11,889 bases of DNA from an uncultured Candidatus Saccharibacteria bacterium (GTDB lineage Bacteria > Patescibacteriota > Minisyncoccia > Phycocordibacterales > CAZTTV01): contig CAZTTV010000017.1 of the NCBI GenBank assembly GCA_964616385.1, positions 1-11,889 of the forward strand, given 5' to 3'. This document shows, in pieces, positions 1-11,500 of the stretch (the first letter of the stretch is position 1; the number at the start of each line of letters is the position of its first letter). The notes beneath the pieces are model-generated. The model was given only the letters and a program-made list of their open reading frames with translations, was not told the origin of the DNA and searched no databases. The position numbers and the translations under genes were made by a program.

Positions 1-55
1 ACTAGAAATAAAACGTGAAATGCTAGCTAAAAAAGCGACTAAAAAGCGTAAGTAA
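1..55 (+). repeat. Direct-repeat copy A, exact 55-bp match to 2328..2382. It carries the 3' end of a lysine-rich reading frame (…KRLEIKREMLAKKATKKRK*) and is cut by the window edge, so it may be longer.
   Basis: Character-by-character identity of 1..55 with 2328..2382. Flanks diverge immediately after (gtcatcg vs tttttgt). Confidence 0.9.
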
Positions 56-77
56 GTCATCGCATACAATGCCCTGC

Positions 78-107
78 ACCCAAAATAACGAGGTTTGGGT
101 CATTTTG
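78..107 (+). terminator. Weak hairpin (acccaaa…tttgggt) followed by a cattttg T-run, downstream of repeat copy A.
   Basis: 7-bp inverted repeat plus T-run, seen directly. Confidence 0.3.
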
Positions 108-116
108 TTATAAAAT

Positions 117-150
117 AATCGTACACCACACTCGTGATGTACGATTTTTA
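117..150. terminator. Bidirectional intrinsic terminator: 9-bp stem aatcgtaca/tgtacgatt with a T-run on both strands. It terminates the 148..639 (-) gene.
   Basis: Perfect 9-bp inverted repeat with 12-nt loop, then ttttt. It overlaps the stop codon of the minus-strand ORF. Confidence 0.55.
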
Positions 151-639
151 TGCCTTAATATCTATTCTATTCCCTAACAGTGAGCGAGACCTTTCTAATT
201 CTTTATGTAACTCATCAAATAAAGTATCCGTTGTTTTGTTTGGGTCATAACCCGAACTTGGAGCTACCCTTACAATACTTTGAGCAAGTTTTTTCTTCTC
301 TTGAGGAATTGGTGCTTCTGATACTGAGCTAACGGCATTTAACAATGCGGTAACTCCAACCTTTAATCCATTATTTGATGCAGCAGGACCGTATACCGAC
401 AACGAACCAATCCCGTTTGTAGACGAGCCTCCCATAAATCCATACAAAGAACTCAAGGATCCTTGTCCAATACTTCCGGTATTAGCGCTATCAATAATGG
501 AGATTAGACTCGCATTCATTTCCTGCCCTGTCTGCTGTATCGCTCCGCTACCAAGAGCTCCCATAGAAATCTTGAGTGATGATCCTAATAAACCAACAAC
601 TGGATTTGCGAAAACAGGAGAAATAGCTCCAATCTTCAT
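148..639 (-). CDS. Hypothetical Gly/Ser/Asn/Gln-rich low-complexity protein, 163 aa. Paralog family member P1 with a hydrophobic Gly-rich N-terminus and a VGLLGSSL motif.
   Basis: ATG at 639 is preceded by AGGAGA with a 5-nt spacer. It has its own terminator downstream. The N-terminal motif is shared with the 737..1081 and 1103..1360 products. Confidence 0.7.
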   Translation of the reverse strand: MKIGAISPVFANPVVGLLGSSLKISMGALGSGAIQQTGQEMNASLISIIDSANTGSIGQGSLSSLYGFMGGSSTNGIGSLSVYGPAASNNGLKVGVTALLNAVSSVSEAPIPQEKKKLAQSIVRVAPSSGYDPNKTTDTLFDELHKELERSRSLLGNRIDIKA

Positions 640-690
640 AATATTCTCCTAATGTTCTATCTAGCTACATAATAACATTTATTTTACAAT

Positions 691-730
691 TAAAAAACTC
701 CGCAGTGGTATATAAATACACACTGCAGAG
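691..730 (-). terminator. Intrinsic terminator after the 737..1081 gene: 10-bp stem (one mismatch) ctctgcagtg/cactgcggag, 13-nt loop, then TTTTTTA on the minus strand.
   Basis: Inverted repeat 698..707 / 721..730. The complement of 691..697 is ttttta. Confidence 0.6.
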
Positions 731-736
731 GTTTAC

Positions 737-1081
737 TTAGACATACATATTAACGGAGCCAGATCCAGAGCTTGAACTGTGCCCAGTATTTACTGGGTCT
801 CTCGCTCCAGAAGCACCGACGGAGCTTGGATAAACGGGGCCAAGGGAAGTATCCGAGCCAGGCCACTTGTCTTCCAGGGCCATCGCACGAATTAAATTAA
901 TATCTTTTTCGACACCTTTACTTTTAGGATCATCCTCTGCGCGCAATGAACCTGGTGACAGACTACTAGCCAATAACTCCCCCACTTGGGGCGCCTTAGA
1001 TCGCAGATCGGCAAAATCACCAAGATTAAGCCGCAAGCCACTAGCACTACTTACACCGCCTACTGGAGCAATACTTGACAT
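737..1081 (-). CDS. Hypothetical Gly/Ser-rich protein, 114 aa. Paralog family member P2 with a VGELLASSLSPGS motif and a C-terminal Ser-rich tract HSSSSGSGS.
   Basis: ATG at 1081 is preceded by GAGGAGA with a 6-nt spacer. It lies 21 nt downstream of the previous gene's stop, which implies an operon. Confidence 0.7.
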   Translation of the reverse strand: MSSIAPVGGVSSASGLRLNLGDFADLRSKAPQVGELLASSLSPGSLRAEDDPKSKGVEKDINLIRAMALEDKWPGSDTSLGPVYPSSVGASGARDPVNTGHSSSSGSGSVNMYV

Positions 1082-1102
1082 AGATTATCTCCTCAATTAA
1101 TG

Positions 1103-1360
1103 TTAAGCAGTACTATCTAATTTAGTACCTTTTCCAACTTCTTTTGCACCTGCGTCAAGAACATCGGACAGTTTACCTACGGACATTTTTTGAGCATCTC
1201 CAGAAGCAGTAGCCACTTCTTTTTGCTTGAATTCATCAACCGCATTTTTTACCGCATTTGCCTCGCCTGCAACCACTTGAAGCTCTTTGGGGCTCAAACT
1301 ACTCGCTTGAGTTGCACCAAACCCACCAATAGCACCTACGGACATACCTGAATCAGACAT
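1103..1360 (-). CDS. Hypothetical Gly/Ala/Lys-rich protein, 85 aa. Paralog family member P3 with N-terminus MSDSGMSVGAIGGFGATQASSLSPKEL.
   Basis: The ATG at 1360 is preceded by GGAAGGTGA about 6 nt upstream. It is chosen over the track start at 1411, which lacks an SD. The ASSLSP motif is shared with P2. Confidence 0.65.
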   Translation of the reverse strand: MSDSGMSVGAIGGFGATQASSLSPKELQVVAGEANAVKNAVDEFKQKEVATASGDAQKMSVGKLSDVLDAGAKEVGKGTKLDSTA

Positions 1361-1470
1361 GATATTCACCTTCCATTTATTTGTATAAAAACTAATTTGT
1401 GCACCATGCACGACAACCTATACTAGGTATAACATAAACTATTTAAAAATCAAGTCTTCCCGTAAATATT

Positions 1471-1506
1471 AAAACCCCCTCTATTTTATTAAACTGAGGG
1501 GGTTTT
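1471..1506 (-). terminator. Intrinsic terminator after the 1505..1747 gene: 11-bp stem aaaaccccctc/gagggggtttt with a 14-nt loop.
   Basis: Perfect 11-bp inverted repeat with an A-tract on one arm and a T-tract on the other. Confidence 0.65.
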
Positions 1507-1747
1507 AGATGGCTATATTGATTCCTCTACCAATGCCAAATTCGGACATAACATTATTAACATACTCTACGACTTCTCTTTTTTTTTCTTTGGCATTTTT
1601 CTTAGCAAGAGTACCTCTTGCCTGACGTCCACCACCTTGCCCAGAATTTATCCCTGAGAGAAATTTCACTCTTGCATACGCTCTAGCAACGGCCATTCTT
1701 CTCGTCATACTTCCTTGATTCTCTCCAGTTAATTGTGAGATATTCAT
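1505..1747 (-). CDS. Hypothetical basic Gly-rich protein, 80 aa (…MTRRMAVARAYARVKF…GQGGGRQARG…KKNAKEKKRE…MSEFGIGRG). Its ATG sits 1 nt after the upstream gene's TGA (TGAtATG).
   Basis: ATG 1747..1745. A purine-rich AAAGAAAG lies upstream and the gene is translationally coupled to 1749..1925. Confidence 0.55.
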   Translation of the reverse strand: MNISQLTGENQGSMTRRMAVARAYARVKFLSGINSGQGGGRQARGTLAKKNAKEKKREVVEYVNNVMSEFGIGRGINIAI

Positions 1748-1748
1748 A

Positions 1749-1925
1749 TCACTTTCTTTCTGATATTACAATACGGGAGGAAGGGATACAGTCGTGATCA
1801 TTGAAATAACCCACGATTATTTTACAACTACAGATTCCGCAAAAATGAAGACTTCTAGAATTCGCACCAGCACCAACTAAAGGCAAGTATTCCTTAATCT
1901 TTTTCTTATCCGCTAAGTCTGACAT
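1749..1925 (-). CDS. Cys-rich small peptide, 58 aa: MSDLADKKKIKEYLPLVGAGANSRSLHFCGICSCKIIVGYFNDHDCIPSSRIVISERK. Possible leader-core architecture; a candidate bacteriocin/RiPP-like precursor or a small metal-binding peptide.
   Basis: The real start is the ATG at 1925, preceded by GGAGA with a 5-nt spacer. The track's GTG at 1970 has no RBS. The reverse complement was translated codon by codon. Confidence 0.6.
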   Translation of the reverse strand: MSDLADKKKIKEYLPLVGAGANSRSLHFCGICSCKIIVGYFNDHDCIPSSRIVISERK

Positions 1926-1968
1926 AATAATCTCCAATTCAAAAGATGTTTTATTTTTTCTATCTGTC

Positions 1969-1996
1969 ACTGTATCATATTAAATGTTTTTGTCAA
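1969..1996 (-). promoter_or_regulatory. Putative sigma70-type promoter for the Cys-peptide operon: TTGACA, 16 nt, then TGATACAGT (extended -10-like).
   Basis: Reverse complement of 1991..1996 is TTGACA, and of 1969..1977 is tgatacagt. Confidence 0.4.
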
Positions 1997-2261
1997 CCCA
2001 AATCGCTATATCTTAAAAACCATACTTTCTGTTAAATAAAGAACTCCAGATATAGAATGCCGTGGGTATCAAAGGAGTTTGTTGCCTCAGGTCAAACCTG
2101 AGACATGATTTAGGCGTTGAACATAAAAATCTTCTTGTGTTTATTTAAAATACAGTAACCTAAGTGTTTAGATGAGCACATATATTTGTCTATACCTACA
2201 AATAACAAACATCCTGTATATTATTTTGTAAACTATAATATAAATAGTGTATACTGTGGCA

Positions 2262-2382
2262 TATGGCAAAAAGAAGTACTGGAATAGAAAAAAATAAAAC
2301 ATCACGTTCAAAAAAGACAAAAAAACGACTAGAAATAAAACGTGAAATGCTAGCTAAAAAAGCGACTAAAAAGCGTAAGTAA
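2262..2382 (+). other. Tiny lysine-rich reading frame. ATG 2262 gives MAKRSTGNRKK* (11 aa). The +1 frame continues …GIEKNKTSRSKKTKKRLEIKREMLAKKATKKRK* to 2382. It is either a frameshifted or slippage-prone small basic protein gene, or a non-coding repeat. Its 3' 55 bp are duplicated at 1..55.
   Basis: Manual translation of both frames. TTGTAA-18-TATACT ends 7 nt before the ATG (a leaderless-type layout). The homopolymer aaaaaaa lies at 2288..2294. Confidence 0.3.
2328..2382 (+). repeat. Direct-repeat copy B, exact 55-bp match to 1..55.
   Basis: Exact identity with 1..55. Confidence 0.9.
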
Positions 2383-3036: not shown

Positions 3037-4821
3037 ATGGAAATAAGGAACATAGCAATAATAGCTCATGTTGACCACGGGAAGACGACTCTTACCGATG
3101 CTATTTTGCGTCAAACTGGTGCTGTTGATAATAATACAAGCATGGACAGCGATGCCCTTGAACAAGAACGGGGTATAACCATATACTCAAAAAATGCTGC
3201 GACTGTATATAAAGACACAAAAATAAATATTGTTGATACACCAGGTCATGCAGATTTTGGTTCAGAGGTAGAGCGAGTATTGCGTTCAATTGACTCTGTA
3301 TTATTGATAGTTGATGCACAAGAAGGTCCGATGCCACAAACTCGTTTCGTTCTAAAGAAATCTCTTGATCTTGGTCTTCGTCCAATTTTAGTAATAAACA
3401 AAATAGACAAAGAAGCTGCTGATCATGTTAAGGTACACGATGAAGTATTTGATTTATTTTCAGAGCTAGGAGCAACAAACGAGCAGTTGGACTTCCCTGT
3501 TATTTATGCAATTGGAAGAGATGGCGTTGCAATGAAAAATATAGACGATGAAAAAAAAGACCTTACTCCACTTCTTGATTTAATTTTAGAACATGTACCA
3601 GTAGCGTCAGGAGACAAAGACGGTTCGTTCATCGCACAGCCTTTTAACCTTGCGTATGACAATTTTCTAGGAAGACTTGCTATCGTACGTATTCACGACG
3701 GAAGTATAAAATCAGGTGATAATATTTTTGTAAAAAAACAAGACGGAATTTCTAAACATAAAATAACAAAACTATTTACTTTTCATGGAACATCACGTGT
3801 TGATACAGATGAAATAATTGCTGGAGATATTGCAATCATTGCAGGACTTCCTGATGTATATATTGGAGATACACTATGCACAGATGAAAACACTGCTCTA
3901 CTTGAAGCTATTGCTGTTGACGAGCCAACTATTGAGCTTACATTTCTTGTAAACAACTCCCCTTTCGCAGGTCGTGAAGGAAAATTTGTAACAAGCAGAC
4001 AAATCCGTGAGCGTTTAGAAAAAGAACTTGAAGTAAATGTTGGATTACGTGTTAATTTTGATACAGGAGGTGGTGAACAATTCACAGTTTACGGACGTGG
4101 CGAACTACACATTGCGATTTTAATAGAAAATATGCGTAGAGAAGGATACGAACTTCAAATTTCACAACCAAAAGTTATCATGAAAGAAGTCGATGGAAAA
4201 AGACAAGAACCATTTGAAGAAATAACGATTGATGTTCCTGAAGAATTTCAAGGTACAGTGATTGAAGCATTGAATAAAAGAGGTGCTACTATGCTAAATC
4301 TTGAACTCCATGACACTCGTGCGCAAATGTTATTTGAAGGTCCAACACGTGGACTATTTGGATACAGAAGTGTATTTGTAATTGATACAAGAGGAGAAGG
4401 AATCTTTGCAACTCGTGTGACAGGATACAAACCATACGCAGGCGAAATAGAACGTCGTGATGCAGGTTCAATGATTTCACAAGTTACTGGCAAGACACTC
4501 GCCTTTTCACTCGCAAATCTTCAAACACGTGGAGTACTATATATTAAAGAAAATACTGAGGTTTACGAAGGTATGGTTATAGGAAATACATCCAAAGGAG
4601 AACAAATGACAGTAAACCCTACAAAAGGAAAACAACTTACCAACATGCGTGCATCTGGAAGTGATGAAGCTATTTCACTTACTCCTCCACAAATTGTTAC
4701 TATTGAAACTGGTCTTGAGATAATGGCGAAAGATGAGTATTTAGAAGTAACCCCAAAATCTGTACGTCTTAGAAAACAACATTTGACTGATAATGACCGA
4801 TCAAAAGCAAGAAGAAAATAA
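3037..4821 (+). CDS. typA: Translational GTPase TypA/BipA (594 aa).
   Basis: N-terminus [21 protein letters not shown] with G1-G5 GTPase motifs ([13 protein letters not shown]). Length and C-terminal domain are typical of the BipA family (established knowledge). No SD upstream. Confidence 0.95.
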
Positions 4822-7867: not shown

Positions 7868-8146
7868 CTATCTACTATTCCTGAAACAATCTATGCATTT
7901 TAAATTCCCTGTTTCTCTTGGCTCGAATGGTAGTTGTGATATTGTCGCACTACAGCTACCACATTTCCAATCTCCTTGAAACATTTTCTTTTGTGGGCTA
8001 TCTGACTTTTTTGATGCATGACAATCACGACAAAGTAACCCACTTGTATCTCTCGGTTCAAACGGTAATTCTGTTATATCTTTATTACAACCCGAACACT
8101 TCCAATTGCCTTGAAACATTTTTCTATCACTATTTTGTGAATCCAT
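7868..8146 (-). CDS. Small tandem C4 zinc-ribbon protein, 92 aa, with two copies of KMFQG(N/D)WKC(S/G)(G/S)C-x18-C-x-DC.
   Basis: Internal duplication at protein level and at DNA level (about 28-nt near-identical repeat starts). C-x2-C-x18-C-x2-C spacing resembles TraR/DksA-type C4 fingers, ending in CIDC. No SD, so the start (8146 vs 8119) is uncertain. Confidence 0.6.
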   Translation of the reverse strand: MDSQNSDRKMFQGNWKCSGCNKDITELPFEPRDTSGLLCRDCHASKKSDSPQKKMFQGDWKCGSCSATISQLPFEPRETGNLKCIDCFRNSR

Positions 8147-8263: not shown

Positions 8264-9430
8264 TTACAAATATGATATAACTTTATTCGCCATATCTTTT
8301 GTACCTAAAAGTTTTAAAGAATCATCTCCATCAGAAAATATATCTCCTGTACGATACCCTTCACGCAAAACACGCAAAACTGATTTCTCTATATCATCAG
8401 CACCTTCAATTGCACCGATGTGTCTGAGCATCATACCTGCTGTAAGAATTCTTCCAAGTGGATTTGCTATTCCCTGCCCAGCAATTGTTGGTGCAGTACC
8501 TGCTCCACTTTCAAACATAGCAGAACCCGTATCAGGATTTATAGCAGAACTACACATCATTCCCATACTTCCCAATGCGCTAGCTGCACCGTCTGACAAT
8601 ATATCGCCATGTTCATTACCACAAGCGATAACTCCATTAAGTTTTGCTGGTGTGAACAAAAGTGCATTAGCTGAATCTACAAGTTGATGTTTTAATTCAA
8701 CATCAGGAAATTCTTCCATCCCAATTTTTGTAGTAATCTTCCTCCAAAAATCATATCTTGCCATTACGTTAGCTTTATCGATTGAAATAAGCGGAAGATC
8801 CAACTTCTTGGCATAGCCAAAAGCAAAGCGTATATACTTTTCAATAGTCTCTTTTCTGTAATAAGCAACGTCAGTAACAATATATTCTTCTATAGAAACT
8901 TTATTTTTGAGCATTATACCGAGCATTGTTTTTGTATCATCATCGATAAAATCAACAAAGTCTGTATTCCCAAAATAGCTATCTTCCAGAAGAAGACGAA
9001 TCCAAATTTGTTTTATCCCTTTATCTGGTATTGTCCCAGGTTTAACATTTGCGAGACTATCAAGCACCTTGTAATAAGTCATTGGTCGAAAATTAAGCAA
9101 CAAACCCATAGTACTTCTAAGAGCAAGTAAGCATCTGGCTTCAGGCTTCATCTCTGGTTTTTCAATACCTATTGTATTGTCAAACTTAGGATCACCTACT
9201 CCACCAAAAAATATCGTACCGATTTCAACTGCTCTTTCAAAAGAACTCTTTGGAAGTGTGTCTCCAAATATTTCGTAAGCATTCCACCCCATAGGAGTAT
9301 CTTCAAAAACAATTTCCATACCATATTTCTCCGCAGCAATAATAGCAACGGAACAAGCAGCTTCCATCATTTCTGGACCAGAACCATCACCTTTTACTAA
9401 AGCAATGGTTTTCTTTCTATTAATTCCCAT
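8264..9430 (-). CDS. leuB: 3-isopropylmalate dehydrogenase family (isocitrate/isopropylmalate/homoisocitrate DH superfamily), 388 aa.
   Basis: Family motifs (…GNEHGDILSDGAASALGSMGM…). RBS GAAAGGA. It lies 15 nt downstream of the leuCD stop, so it is operonic. Confidence 0.75.
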   Translation of the reverse strand: MGINRKKTIALVKGDGSGPEMMEAACSVAIIAAEKYGMEIVFEDTPMGWNAYEIFGDTLPKSSFERAVEIGTIFFGGVGDPKFDNTIGIEKPEMKPEARCLLALRSTMGLLLNFRPMTYYKVLDSLANVKPGTIPDKGIKQIWIRLLLEDSYFGNTDFVDFIDDDTKTMLGIMLKNKVSIEEYIVTDVAYYRKETIEKYIRFAFGYAKKLDLPLISIDKANVMARYDFWRKITTKIGMEEFPDVELKHQLVDSANALLFTPAKLNGVIACGNEHGDILSDGAASALGSMGMMCSSAINPDTGSAMFESGAGTAPTIAGQGIANPLGRILTAGMMLRHIGAIEGADDIEKSVLRVLREGYRTGDIFSDGDDSLKLLGTKDMANKVISYL

Positions 9431-9445
9431 AAATATATCCTTTCT

Positions 9446-11389
9446 CTATAGAATTTTATGTTGTTTCTGTAATTCAGCTGCAATTTCAATCATTACATTA
9501 ACACTTCCATTATTTCTAATGAGCTCTTTTTGATAATCAGACAATCTAAACTCTATAAATATGTCTCCATTGCTGATTAGACCGTTCTCTATATCAATCG
9601 TCAGATTGCTGACACTTCCTAATTGCTCAATAGTGTTAGCTGGTAGTGTTATGCACAAAAGACCATTTGCGAACATATTATCTTCAAAAATACGTGCAAA
9701 ACTTGGTGCTATAATACATTTAGTACCAGCTCCTTCCAATGCCCATGGTGCATGCTCTCTTGATGACCCACAGCCAAAGTTCTCCCCAACTATAAGTATC
9801 TGAGATTCAAATAATCTCTGTCTCCCTTCTTTGTCAATGGAAGAATCTTCGAGACAATGTTCTCCAAATACTTTTTTATCAGTTTCTGTTAAATATTTTG
9901 CTGGTATTATCTGATCTGTATCAACATTGTCATCTTTCAAATGAAAAACTTTGCCAGAAAAATCTTTTTTACTTTCACTGCTAAACATTTTTAACAACTT
10001 AGAATAATCAGGGGTTGTAAACGGAACATCATTCCAATGAGTTGGTATGGATTTTGACACCTCACAACCAACCAAAGAACCTAGGCGCGCTCGCTTGCAC
10101 ATATCCTTATCTGGTTCTGTTATTACTCCAAAAATAGCAGACATAGCTGCTGTTGCAGGAGATACTAAATGCACAATTCCGCCCTTACCCATTCTTCCTG
10201 GGAAATTACGATTAGTTGTAGAAATACAAACCTCACCAGGGGCAAGAACACCACAACTCATACCAAGACAAGCACCACATGTAGGACCACTAACAAAACA
10301 TCCAGCTTTTACAAATGTCTGTATTAATCCTTCTGAAATAGCTTGCTCATATATATGTTGTGTGGCAGGAACTATAATACATCGAACAGAAGAATTTATT
10401 CTACCTCCCAAAATACGAATGACTTCTGCTGCTATTCTCAAATCTTCAATTCTTCCATTTGTGCAAGAACCAATATATATCTGATCAATTTTCTTGTCAG
10501 CAATACCAGATACATCAACAACACACTCGGGTGAATAATTGATAGTAGCTTTAGGACACATGTCTGACACATCAATTTCTATGACATCATTATATTCTGC
10601 ATTCAAATCACTATTAAAAGACAAAAATCTTTCAATATTAGAATCTACGTTTTCATGTCCAAGATATTTTATGATAGCTGGTTTTAAATAAGAAATCGTC
10701 TTTCCGTCAATTGGCATAATCCCTGATGTTGCTCCAGCTTCAACAACCATATTAGTGATTGTCATTCTACTTTCCATGGTCATTTCATTAATGACTGACC
10801 CACCAAATTCCAATACAGAGTTTGTCGCACCTTTTACACCAATTTTCCCAATAAGTGTCAAAATCAAATCTTTAGCAAATACATTTTCAGGCAACTCGCC
10901 TACAAAATTCACACGTATAACTTTTTGAGGTTGGCATATCCAAAGTCCTGTTATGATACCATTTTCTAGATCGGTAGAACCAACTCCTGCAGAAAAAGAA
11001 CCAAAGGCTCCATGTGTGCAAGTGTGGCTATCTCCCATAATTCCAACTTCTCCAGGGAGTATCCAACCCAATTCTGGTATGATCGCATGACACACGCCAT
11101 TTCGTCCTATATCTAGAAACTCTATTTTATGGCTATGGCTCCAATCTCTTATTATTTTACCCTGAACAGCAGATGCTGTATCTTTCGCAGGATTAACATG
11201 ATCTATCATTGCCTTAATCTTATTTGGATCAAAAACAACGTCACAATCGCGAGACTGTGCATCAATTATAGAAGGAGGAGTAGTAATCTCGTGACACCAC
11301 ACCCTATCAACTTTTAGCACCATTCTTCCGTCTTGTAGTGTTTTTACAACATGTTTAGAGATTATTTTCTCATACATATTTCTAGCCAT
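9446..11389 (-). CDS. leuCD: Fused 3-isopropylmalate dehydratase: large-subunit (LeuC, aconitase-family, small archaeal type) plus small-subunit (LeuD) in one polypeptide, about 647 aa.
   Basis: N-terminal part has aconitase-family Cys ligands (…GSCTNGRIEDL…, …CGACLGM…). C-terminal part matches LeuD (…NVDTDQIIPAKYL…GENFGCGSSREHAPWAL…SFARIFEDN…). Start is reassigned to the ATG at 11389 (MARNMYEKIISKH) behind AGGAGAAAAAAATG. The track's TTG start at 11500 is the -35 box. Confidence 0.8.
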   Translation of the reverse strand: MARNMYEKIISKHVVKTLQDGRMVLKVDRVWCHEITTPPSIIDAQSRDCDVVFDPNKIKAMIDHVNPAKDTASAVQGKIIRDWSHSHKIEFLDIGRNGVCHAIIPELGWILPGEVGIMGDSHTCTHGAFGSFSAGVGSTDLENGIITGLWICQPQKVIRVNFVGELPENVFAKDLILTLIGKIGVKGATNSVLEFGGSVINEMTMESRMTITNMVVEAGATSGIMPIDGKTISYLKPAIIKYLGHENVDSNIERFLSFNSDLNAEYNDVIEIDVSDMCPKATINYSPECVVDVSGIADKKIDQIYIGSCTNGRIEDLRIAAEVIRILGGRINSSVRCIIVPATQHIYEQAISEGLIQTFVKAGCFVSGPTCGACLGMSCGVLAPGEVCISTTNRNFPGRMGKGGIVHLVSPATAAMSAIFGVITEPDKDMCKRARLGSLVGCEVSKSIPTHWNDVPFTTPDYSKLLKMFSSESKKDFSGKVFHLKDDNVDTDQIIPAKYLTETDKKVFGEHCLEDSSIDKEGRQRLFESQILIVGENFGCGSSREHAPWALEGAGTKCIIAPSFARIFEDNMFANGLLCITLPANTIEQLGSVSNLTIDIENGLISNGDIFIEFRLSDYQKELIRNNGSVNVMIEIAAELQKQHKIL

Positions 11390-11471
11390 TTTTTTCTCCT
11401 TTTTTGTATATGATTCTAAAACTTTTATCAATGAACAAAAACAGCTACGCCGTTTAAGCTTTCTAATAGCC

Positions 11472-11500
11472 ACATTACATAAAATATACTGTTTGGTCAA
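11472..11500 (-). promoter_or_regulatory. Putative leuCD promoter: TTGACC, 17 nt, then TAATGT.
   Basis: Reverse complement of 11495..11500 is ttgacc, and of 11472..11477 is taatgt. The spacer is 17 nt. Confidence 0.45.

Follow-up and report, generated by a model that had tools for sequence, protein, structure and literature searches.

An intact gene for a conserved 39-residue basic protein of Patescibacteria with a predicted leaderless promoter

The DNA analysed here (the window, a whole NCBI contig of 11,889 bp) carries a short lysine-rich reading frame that a preliminary description had taken to be broken. The frame was said to stop after 11 codons (MAKRSTGNRKK*) at runs of G and A, with a +1 frame running on behind the break, and a sequencing indel, recent pseudogenisation, programmed slippage or a non-coding element were offered as possible accounts. 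The question raised by this locus is whether such a break exists at all and, if it does not, what kind of gene is found in its place.

An uninterrupted frame and its protein family

The ATG occupies positions 2263-2265, one base to the right of 2262, where it had been placed. From there a single open frame extends on the forward strand to 2382 and comprises 39 codons and the stop codon TAA, with the direct translation MAKRSTGIEKNKTSRSKKTKKRLEIKREMLAKKATKKRK. Bases 2280-2285 read t-g-g-a-a-t and thus contain two G's and not three. The eleven-codon peptide results from counting one extra G, as it needs GGG at 2280-2282 (GGG AAT AGA AAA AAA TAA), and the supposed +1 frame is the true frame of the 39-residue protein. 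The run of seven A's that had also been pointed out does exist at 2288-2294, inside codons 9 to 11 (GAA AAA AAT), and the frame continues through it.

If the gene were interrupted at its homopolymers, be it by a sequencing indel, as a recent pseudogene or by programmed +1/-1 slippage, the runs prone to such events would be at hand, because an A6 run (2311-2316) and a second A7 run (2321-2327) also lie inside the coding sequence. The frame of the window is nevertheless continuous, and the same uninterrupted stretch 2263-2382 is found base for base in two contigs of other assemblies. One of them (L001) covers the gene and is identical to the window along its full length, the other (L096) has zero differences from 2161 to 2494 and encodes the same 39-residue protein. 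Neither here nor there do two frames have to be joined. Furthermore, all 81 sequences compared (the open reading frame of the window and 80 extracted homologous coding sequences) are each read in one frame, with lengths of 34-59 residues. The probability of an interruption is negligible and we reject it, as direct translation shows no break. With no break to explain, the indel, the pseudogene and the slippage all fall away, and frameshifting, slippage and pseudogenisation play no part in this gene. There is nothing unusual in its decoding, and the reported anomaly is not real.

The product has 39 residues and 4.6 kDa with 18 lysines and arginines versus three glutamates, a pI of 11.6 and zero cysteines. 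It had correctly been described as a very basic peptide of 39 residues with a composition like that of ribosomal proteins; it is an ordinary gene product and not one of slippage. That the stretch might be a non-coding element is contradicted by the substitutions, which amount to 0.22, 0.19 and 0.53 differences per site at the first, second and third codon position in 61 gap-free coding sequences. The excess at third positions marks the gene as protein-coding, and the pattern is that of purifying selection acting on the protein rather than on an RNA molecule or DNA site. Of the 81 sequences, 76-79 have the remaining forward frames closed, and a search of the window for known RNA families and tRNAs found none. 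Translation, family conservation and the third-position excess agree on an intact coding sequence at 2263-2382.

A search with the single sequence, padded with two in-frame upstream codons to reach the minimum length of 40 residues, yielded 106 clusters at 90% identity, almost all of 39-45 residues. The profile of 50 diverse members retrieved approximately 2,900 clusters at E <= 10, of which the best 120 are again nearly all 39-45 residues long, and clustering at 50% reduces the whole family to about ten representatives. The length peaks at 39 (24 sequences), 41 (19) and 40 residues (13), so that most species have 39-41. Identity is 60-90% across deep lineages of the candidate phyla radiation (CPR). 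Residues M1, K3, R4, K18-T-K-K-R-L23 and K26 are invariant, with A2, S16, M29 and L30 nearly so, and the motifs MAKR and KTKKRL are thereby preserved throughout the family.

At least 331 loci were confirmed among GTDB species, with one genome scanned per species, and almost all belong to Patescibacteria. Among the best 80 loci 62 carry names of patescibacterial lineages (Paceibacterota/Parcubacteria, Nomura-, Wolfe-, Kaiser-, Colwell-, Gribaldo-, Falkow-, Veblen-, Levy- and Roizmanbacteria, Saccharibacteria), while most of the others bear unspecific or doubtful labels. The protein of the window is, by its sequence, a member of an unnamed and very tightly conserved family found throughout Patescibacteria (CPR), and the source organism of the window belongs to the same group. 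The protein has no match in Pfam, NCBIfam or PHROGs. NCBI records name the members "hypothetical protein". The family stands for a small gene of very wide occurrence and very high conservation, which lacks a Pfam or NCBIfam entry, goes under the label "hypothetical" and is occasionally mislabelled as L32.

The record titles of several family loci (L021, L022, L037, L043, L074, L082, L086, L089, L040) read Gammaproteobacteria, Patiriisocius or Humimicrobiaceae, and at least some of them look like placeholder or mis-binned labels; one "Gammaproteobacteria" chromosome measures 0.94 Mb, and the tail of the protein from L037 matches one from Veblenbacteria.

Promoter position and transcript ends

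The preliminary description had proposed a near-consensus promoter of the form TTGTAA-18-TATACT that ends 7 nt before the ATG, and this layout is confirmed. The hexamer ttgtaa lies at 2226-2231, followed by 18 nt, by tatact at 2250-2255 and by gtggcat (2256-2262), which fills exactly the 7 nt up to the ATG at 2263. The site reaches 9 of 12 matches in a promoter scan. Taken by itself, such a match is what chance would produce in a region this rich in AT, since five promoter-like sites were found between 1900 and 2900 compared to 5.1 +/- 2.3 in shuffled sequences. The -35-like hexamer in particular is weak, and the homologue alignments contain no conserved -35 element.

The argument for the promoter comes from the comparison between species. 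The block AAATAGTG-TATACT at 2242-2255, which includes the -10 hexamer, is invariant in a four-way DNA alignment, and upstream regions of 70 nt aligned from 80 species give the consensus AAATAGTGTATAAT, which ends 6-9 nt before the ATG. A -10-like hexamer ending 5-9 nt before the ATG occurs in 55 of the 80 species, compared to 21% of 800 control reading frames in the same loci. If the strict motif RTRTAYANT is required at this offset, the difference becomes even more prominent, with 34 out of 81 family genes as opposed to 5 out of 1,116 control frames. The conservation of the promoter at the same offset in the homologues is far beyond chance.

A Shine-Dalgarno sequence is lacking before the ATG of the gene and there is no room for one. 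The geometry of the sequence thus combines the two marks of a leaderless gene, a -10 element at the start codon and no Shine-Dalgarno sequence, and the earlier suggestion of a leaderless-type promoter gains support from the cross-species counts. Transcription would proceed from the conserved -10 block of the AAATAGTG-TATAAT type. With only 7 nt between this block and the ATG, the mRNA is predicted to begin with the A of the start codon or with an adjacent base. We infer leaderless transcription of the gene from this conserved arrangement. It appears to be common in the family and not universal, as approximately 25 of the 80 species have no -10 box close to the ATG and presumably must use a leader.

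These species show either a leader of some 35 nt that is rich in AT or a short hairpin of G and C directly in front of the ATG. In some of the subfamilies without the nearby -10 box (L044, L087, L056; L088, L093, L091, L076, L048) a CTGCTATAAT-type box approximately 35-45 nt upstream is followed by an AT-rich leader (ATTAATTAA...), in others a hairpin CCGCC-N3-GGCGG ends about 9 nt before the ATG.

At the other end of the gene a hairpin resembling an intrinsic terminator (CCAAGAATATTCTTGG and a T-run) is located at 2410-2431 on the forward strand. The predicted mRNA would end there, which would close a monocistronic transcript of about 170 nt. A second strong hairpin, AAAACCGCTTAC-AATC-GTAAGCGGTTTT, lies at 2465-2497 between the gene and a convergent reading frame of 99 residues on the minus strand (2500-2799). 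No protein family matches this frame, and the nearest longer relative, the locus L012 of assembly GCA_054034115.1, does not have it.

The family offers a conserved geometry of promoter and start codon in which both transcription and leaderless translation in CPR bacteria could be studied.

The repeated 3' end and the segment between its copies

The 55-bp repeat that had been noticed at the 3' end of the gene is exact, with positions 1-55 equal to 2328-2382 in direct orientation. The second copy (2328-2382) starts at the third base of codon 22 and takes in codons 23-39 as well as the stop codon, while the first copy (1-55) begins with the first base of the contig. It had been argued that the duplication of the 3' end speaks for its function. 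This argument is invalid: the first copy stands at the start of the contig and the duplicated residues 23-39 include the C-terminal tail, where the protein is least conserved, so that the repeat says nothing on function.

Both right-hand contexts of the repeat are documented. The passage from the first copy to position 56 and beyond is seen in the window and in a Logan contig (L002, window 26-938). This contig proceeds from 938 towards lower coordinates and breaks off at 26, after 30 nt of the repeat, where an assembly with k=31 would be expected to end at a branch. The passage from the second copy to 2383 and beyond is confirmed by the contigs L095 and L096. The contig L001 ends exactly at 2382, and as L095 starts at 2282 the two share an overlap of 101 nt (2282-2382) in the VAPM assembly. 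A value of 55 is a common k-mer length of assemblers. Given this value, the overlap of 101 nt and the position of the first copy at base 1, the true repeat may be longer, with at least 101 nt, and might possibly be a whole second copy of the gene. Look-ups with exact proteins and two metagenome scans returned only L001, L002 and L094-L096, none of which shows the left flank of the first copy. These contigs are pieces of the same genome, which appears in strongly fragmented assemblies (records VAPK and VAPM) as well as in a Logan assembly. The repeat would represent a second genomic context of the 3' end of the gene, upstream of a strain-specific insert of 2.2 kb, and its apparent length would be set by the start of the contig.

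The segment between the copies (56-2236, minus strand) is absent from L012. It contains five consecutive orphan reading frames of 163, 114, 102, 80 and 73 residues on the minus strand, several of them rich in Gly, Ser or Ala, together with a promoter-like site at 1996-1969 and a terminator with a 13-bp stem at 146-117, both on the minus strand. Its GC content is 0.36-0.44 compared to 0.29 around the 39-residue gene. The reading frames gave no match to protein families including PHROGs, and the 163-residue frame, the one tested, has no homologue in 5.8 billion clusters. As there is also no DNA match to phage records, a phage origin of the insert was rejected.

One could read the repeat as the attL/attR pair of a mobile element that integrated site-specifically into the 3' end of the gene. 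The flanking of 2.2 kb of orphan DNA by exact repeats would fit this, as would the higher GC content of this DNA, its absence from L012, the branch that several contigs show where the repeat ends on its right side and an IS element that is mobile nearby in the same population. Yet of what marks an integrative element the locus offers repeats and orphan DNA, whereas it lacks an integrase or recombinase between the repeats and a partial gene copy downstream. The geometry is in fact reversed: the terminator and then typA still follow the intact gene as its native flank, and it is on the upstream side that the extra copy is found. Because this flank is intact and a recombinase is missing, classical integration at a 3' end does not fit. 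The first copy moreover begins at the contig start, 55 may equal the k-mer of the assembler while the other assembly overlaps by 101 nt, and no other species surveyed has two family copies within 4 kb. We consider integration of this kind unlikely. The reading of the repeat as a second context of the 3' end leaves a duplication, a Campbell-type insertion via the shared gene, or a small circle or loop in the assembly graph as possible origins.

A different event is visible at 2893-2897. There, the contigs L095 (VAPM010040064.1) and L003 (VAPK011167456.1) contain an insertion with CAGTA duplicated on both sides, which encodes a transposase of 292 residues with HTH and rve (DDE) domains. The window and L096 are free of it, so the site looks like an insertion-sequence polymorphism.

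Possible function and relation to known systems

An AlphaFold2 model based on the family alignment (mean pLDDT 82) shows residues 1-16 as unstructured coil and residues 17-38 as one helix. The predicted architecture is an extended N-terminal segment followed by one long helix. A Foldseek search and a profile search of the PDB with the family at E <= 10 each returned zero matches.

A hint towards the function arises from the gene neighbourhood. In L012 the family gene lies 180 bp upstream of typA, beyond which a zf_Tbcl_2 protein and a cold-shock gene follow, and all of them also occur in the window. There, typA/bipA, which encodes a ribosome-associated GTPase, occupies 3037-4821 on the forward strand and is the downstream neighbour conserved in L012. 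DNA similarity between the window and L012 in this part is restricted to 2237-2386, from the -10 block through the stop codon. We surveyed 4 kb on either side of the family gene in 80 species. A cold-shock gene of the CspA type (CSD) is present at 18 of the 80 loci, at a median distance of 186 bp downstream and on the same strand in 15 of the 18. A DEAD-box RNA helicase was found at seven loci, TypA/BipA at six, the hibernation factor HPF at four and GreA at four. At least one of Csp, DEAD-box helicase, TypA and HPF lies within 4 kb at 30 of the 80 loci. For a genome of about 1 Mb with one to few csp genes, a rough calculation puts the chance expectation at a few percent for each 8-kb window, so that the enrichment is an estimated one. 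A ribosomal-protein operon was not seen at any locus examined.

The remaining part of the window holds further genes. The zf_Tbcl_2 protein (92 residues, 7868-8146, minus strand) consists of two treble-clef CxxC...CxxC modules, which correspond to an internal direct repeat of 78 nt with 71% identity (7910-7987 and 8045-8122), and in several relatives its gene shares synteny with both the cold-shock gene and the 39-residue gene. On the minus strand at 8264-11500 a LeuB-like dehydrogenase (388 residues) adjoins a fused dehydratase of the LeuC-LeuD or homoaconitase type. The fusion has 684 residues when called from a TTG start, and family matches begin near residue 38. This biosynthetic content is unexpected in a contig of patescibacterial appearance.

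The RNA chaperones and factors of ribosome assembly and hibernation in the neighbourhood are, together with the protein's composition, constant length and very strong conservation, arguments for a protein bound to RNA or to the ribosome. It would bind structured RNA, most likely as an integral or accessory component of the ribosome, and would act in the same setting as its neighbours Csp, the DEAD-box helicase, TypA/BipA and HPF. On composition, conservation and neighbourhood we hold this to be plausible, if still short of an even chance. Against it, the PDB profile and Foldseek searches gave no similarity to solved ribosomal proteins and a ribosomal operon is missing around the gene at the loci examined. 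A more specific proposal, to be taken as tentative, is that the family is a ribosomal protein or tightly bound factor specific to Patescibacteria, which is translated from a leaderless mRNA and tied to the set of Csp, DEAD-box, BipA and HPF. CPR bacteria are noted for reduced ribosomes without several ribosomal proteins and rRNA segments. The family protein might compensate for such losses. Our literature search found no paper on the structure of a CPR ribosome or on a new CPR ribosomal protein. With its conserved promoter of the leaderless type and its link to genes of cold shock and the ribosome, a basic protein of 39 residues that occurs across the whole lineage clearly suggests itself as a candidate for a ribosome component not recognised so far.

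The main rival to the ribosome-bound reading is a small nucleoid-associated protein or general nucleic-acid chaperone, similar to a histone or a Csp partner, which would coat DNA or RNA outside the ribosome via its lysine-rich helix. Its extreme basic charge, the single amphipathic helix of the model, the frequent vicinity of csp genes, whose products are nucleic-acid chaperones, and the missing ribosomal-operon context are all compatible with such a role. A coating protein would however not be expected to keep invariant, non-repetitive motifs such as MAKR and KTKKRL at 60-90% identity across the CPR, which favour a specific binding site, nor a length fixed at 39-41 residues in most species. 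We regard a chaperone outside the ribosome as a minor possibility.

With the protein as a binder of structured RNA, most likely at the ribosome, the question arises whether it could be a known ribosomal protein in disguise, namely a truncated, zinc-free derivative or paralogue of bL32 (RpmF) that kept the N-terminal rRNA-penetrating segment (K-x-K-T-S-[RK]-S-[RK][RK]). Both proteins are small and basic, by eye the segment resembles the N-terminus of the Thermus thermophilus bL32, the sequence of which was verified, and JGI names 5 of the 106 matches of the first search round "ribosomal protein L32". Two curated models give matches below their thresholds, Pfam Ribosomal_L32p (PF01783) with 2 of 44 members (best E 0.12) and TIGR01031 rpmF_bact with 5 of 44 (best E 0.062). 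None of these reaches the cut-offs of the models, and the protein of the window itself gives no match to them. The comparison of the family profile with the T. thermophilus bL32 by hhalign resulted in a probability of 0.18% with no aligned stretch, and the PDB, from which the profile search retrieved nothing, holds hundreds of bL32 chains. With 39 residues, coil plus helix and no cysteines, the family protein also leaves no room for the zinc-ribbon-type C-terminal domain of bL32, a protein with a total of about 55-60 or, more narrowly, 57-60 residues.

The phylogenetic distribution points in the same direction. Tsurumaki et al. reported bL32 to be missing mainly in Saccharibacteria and some Peregrinibacteria and listed it among the proteins that are large in CPR (PMC9297842). 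The family is abundant in other lineages, Parcubacteria/Paceibacteria and Microgenomates, which are reported to keep the canonical bL32 (PMC9297842). No canonical bL32 was present in the 686 kb of family loci, which at about 8 kb per genome are too small a share to bear on co-occurrence. On account of the sub-threshold models, the hhalign probability and the reported distribution we do not file the family under bL32; homology is rejected, and a derivative of bL32 has to be called improbable.

Taken together, the best explanation of the locus is a conserved 39-residue gene with a leaderless promoter and a role at RNA or the ribosome, the 3' end of which recurs in a second genomic context. As a whole we judge this account to be rather probable.

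The locus can be compared to three further known systems. Programmed ribosomal frameshifts take place at A-runs, for example of the dnaX A AAA AAG type. The gene shares with them the A6-A7 runs in its coding sequence, but it has no second frame, no stop codon to bypass and no conservation in an alternative frame.

Leaderless bacterial genes include lambda cI and many genes of Actinobacteria and Deinococcus. The gene resembles these in the -10 element, which ends 6-8 nt before the start in the known cases, in the lack of a Shine-Dalgarno sequence and in the ATG start. In contrast to them, the block of the family extends upstream of the hexamer (AAATAGTG), the transcription start is here predicted from sequence, and approximately 30% of the family members seem to use a leader instead.

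The third comparison is with very small basic ribosomal proteins, which besides eL39 include eL41, bS22/mS38-like proteins and bL37. A resemblance to eL39 by eye (SHKT..IKR..LAKK) was rejected, as hhalign gave a probability of 0.47% over 11 columns. No sequence relationship to these proteins was found, and the PDB profile search was likewise empty. The family shares with them a size of 25-50 residues, the extreme positive charge, a predicted extended segment combined with a helix, and the lack of annotation.
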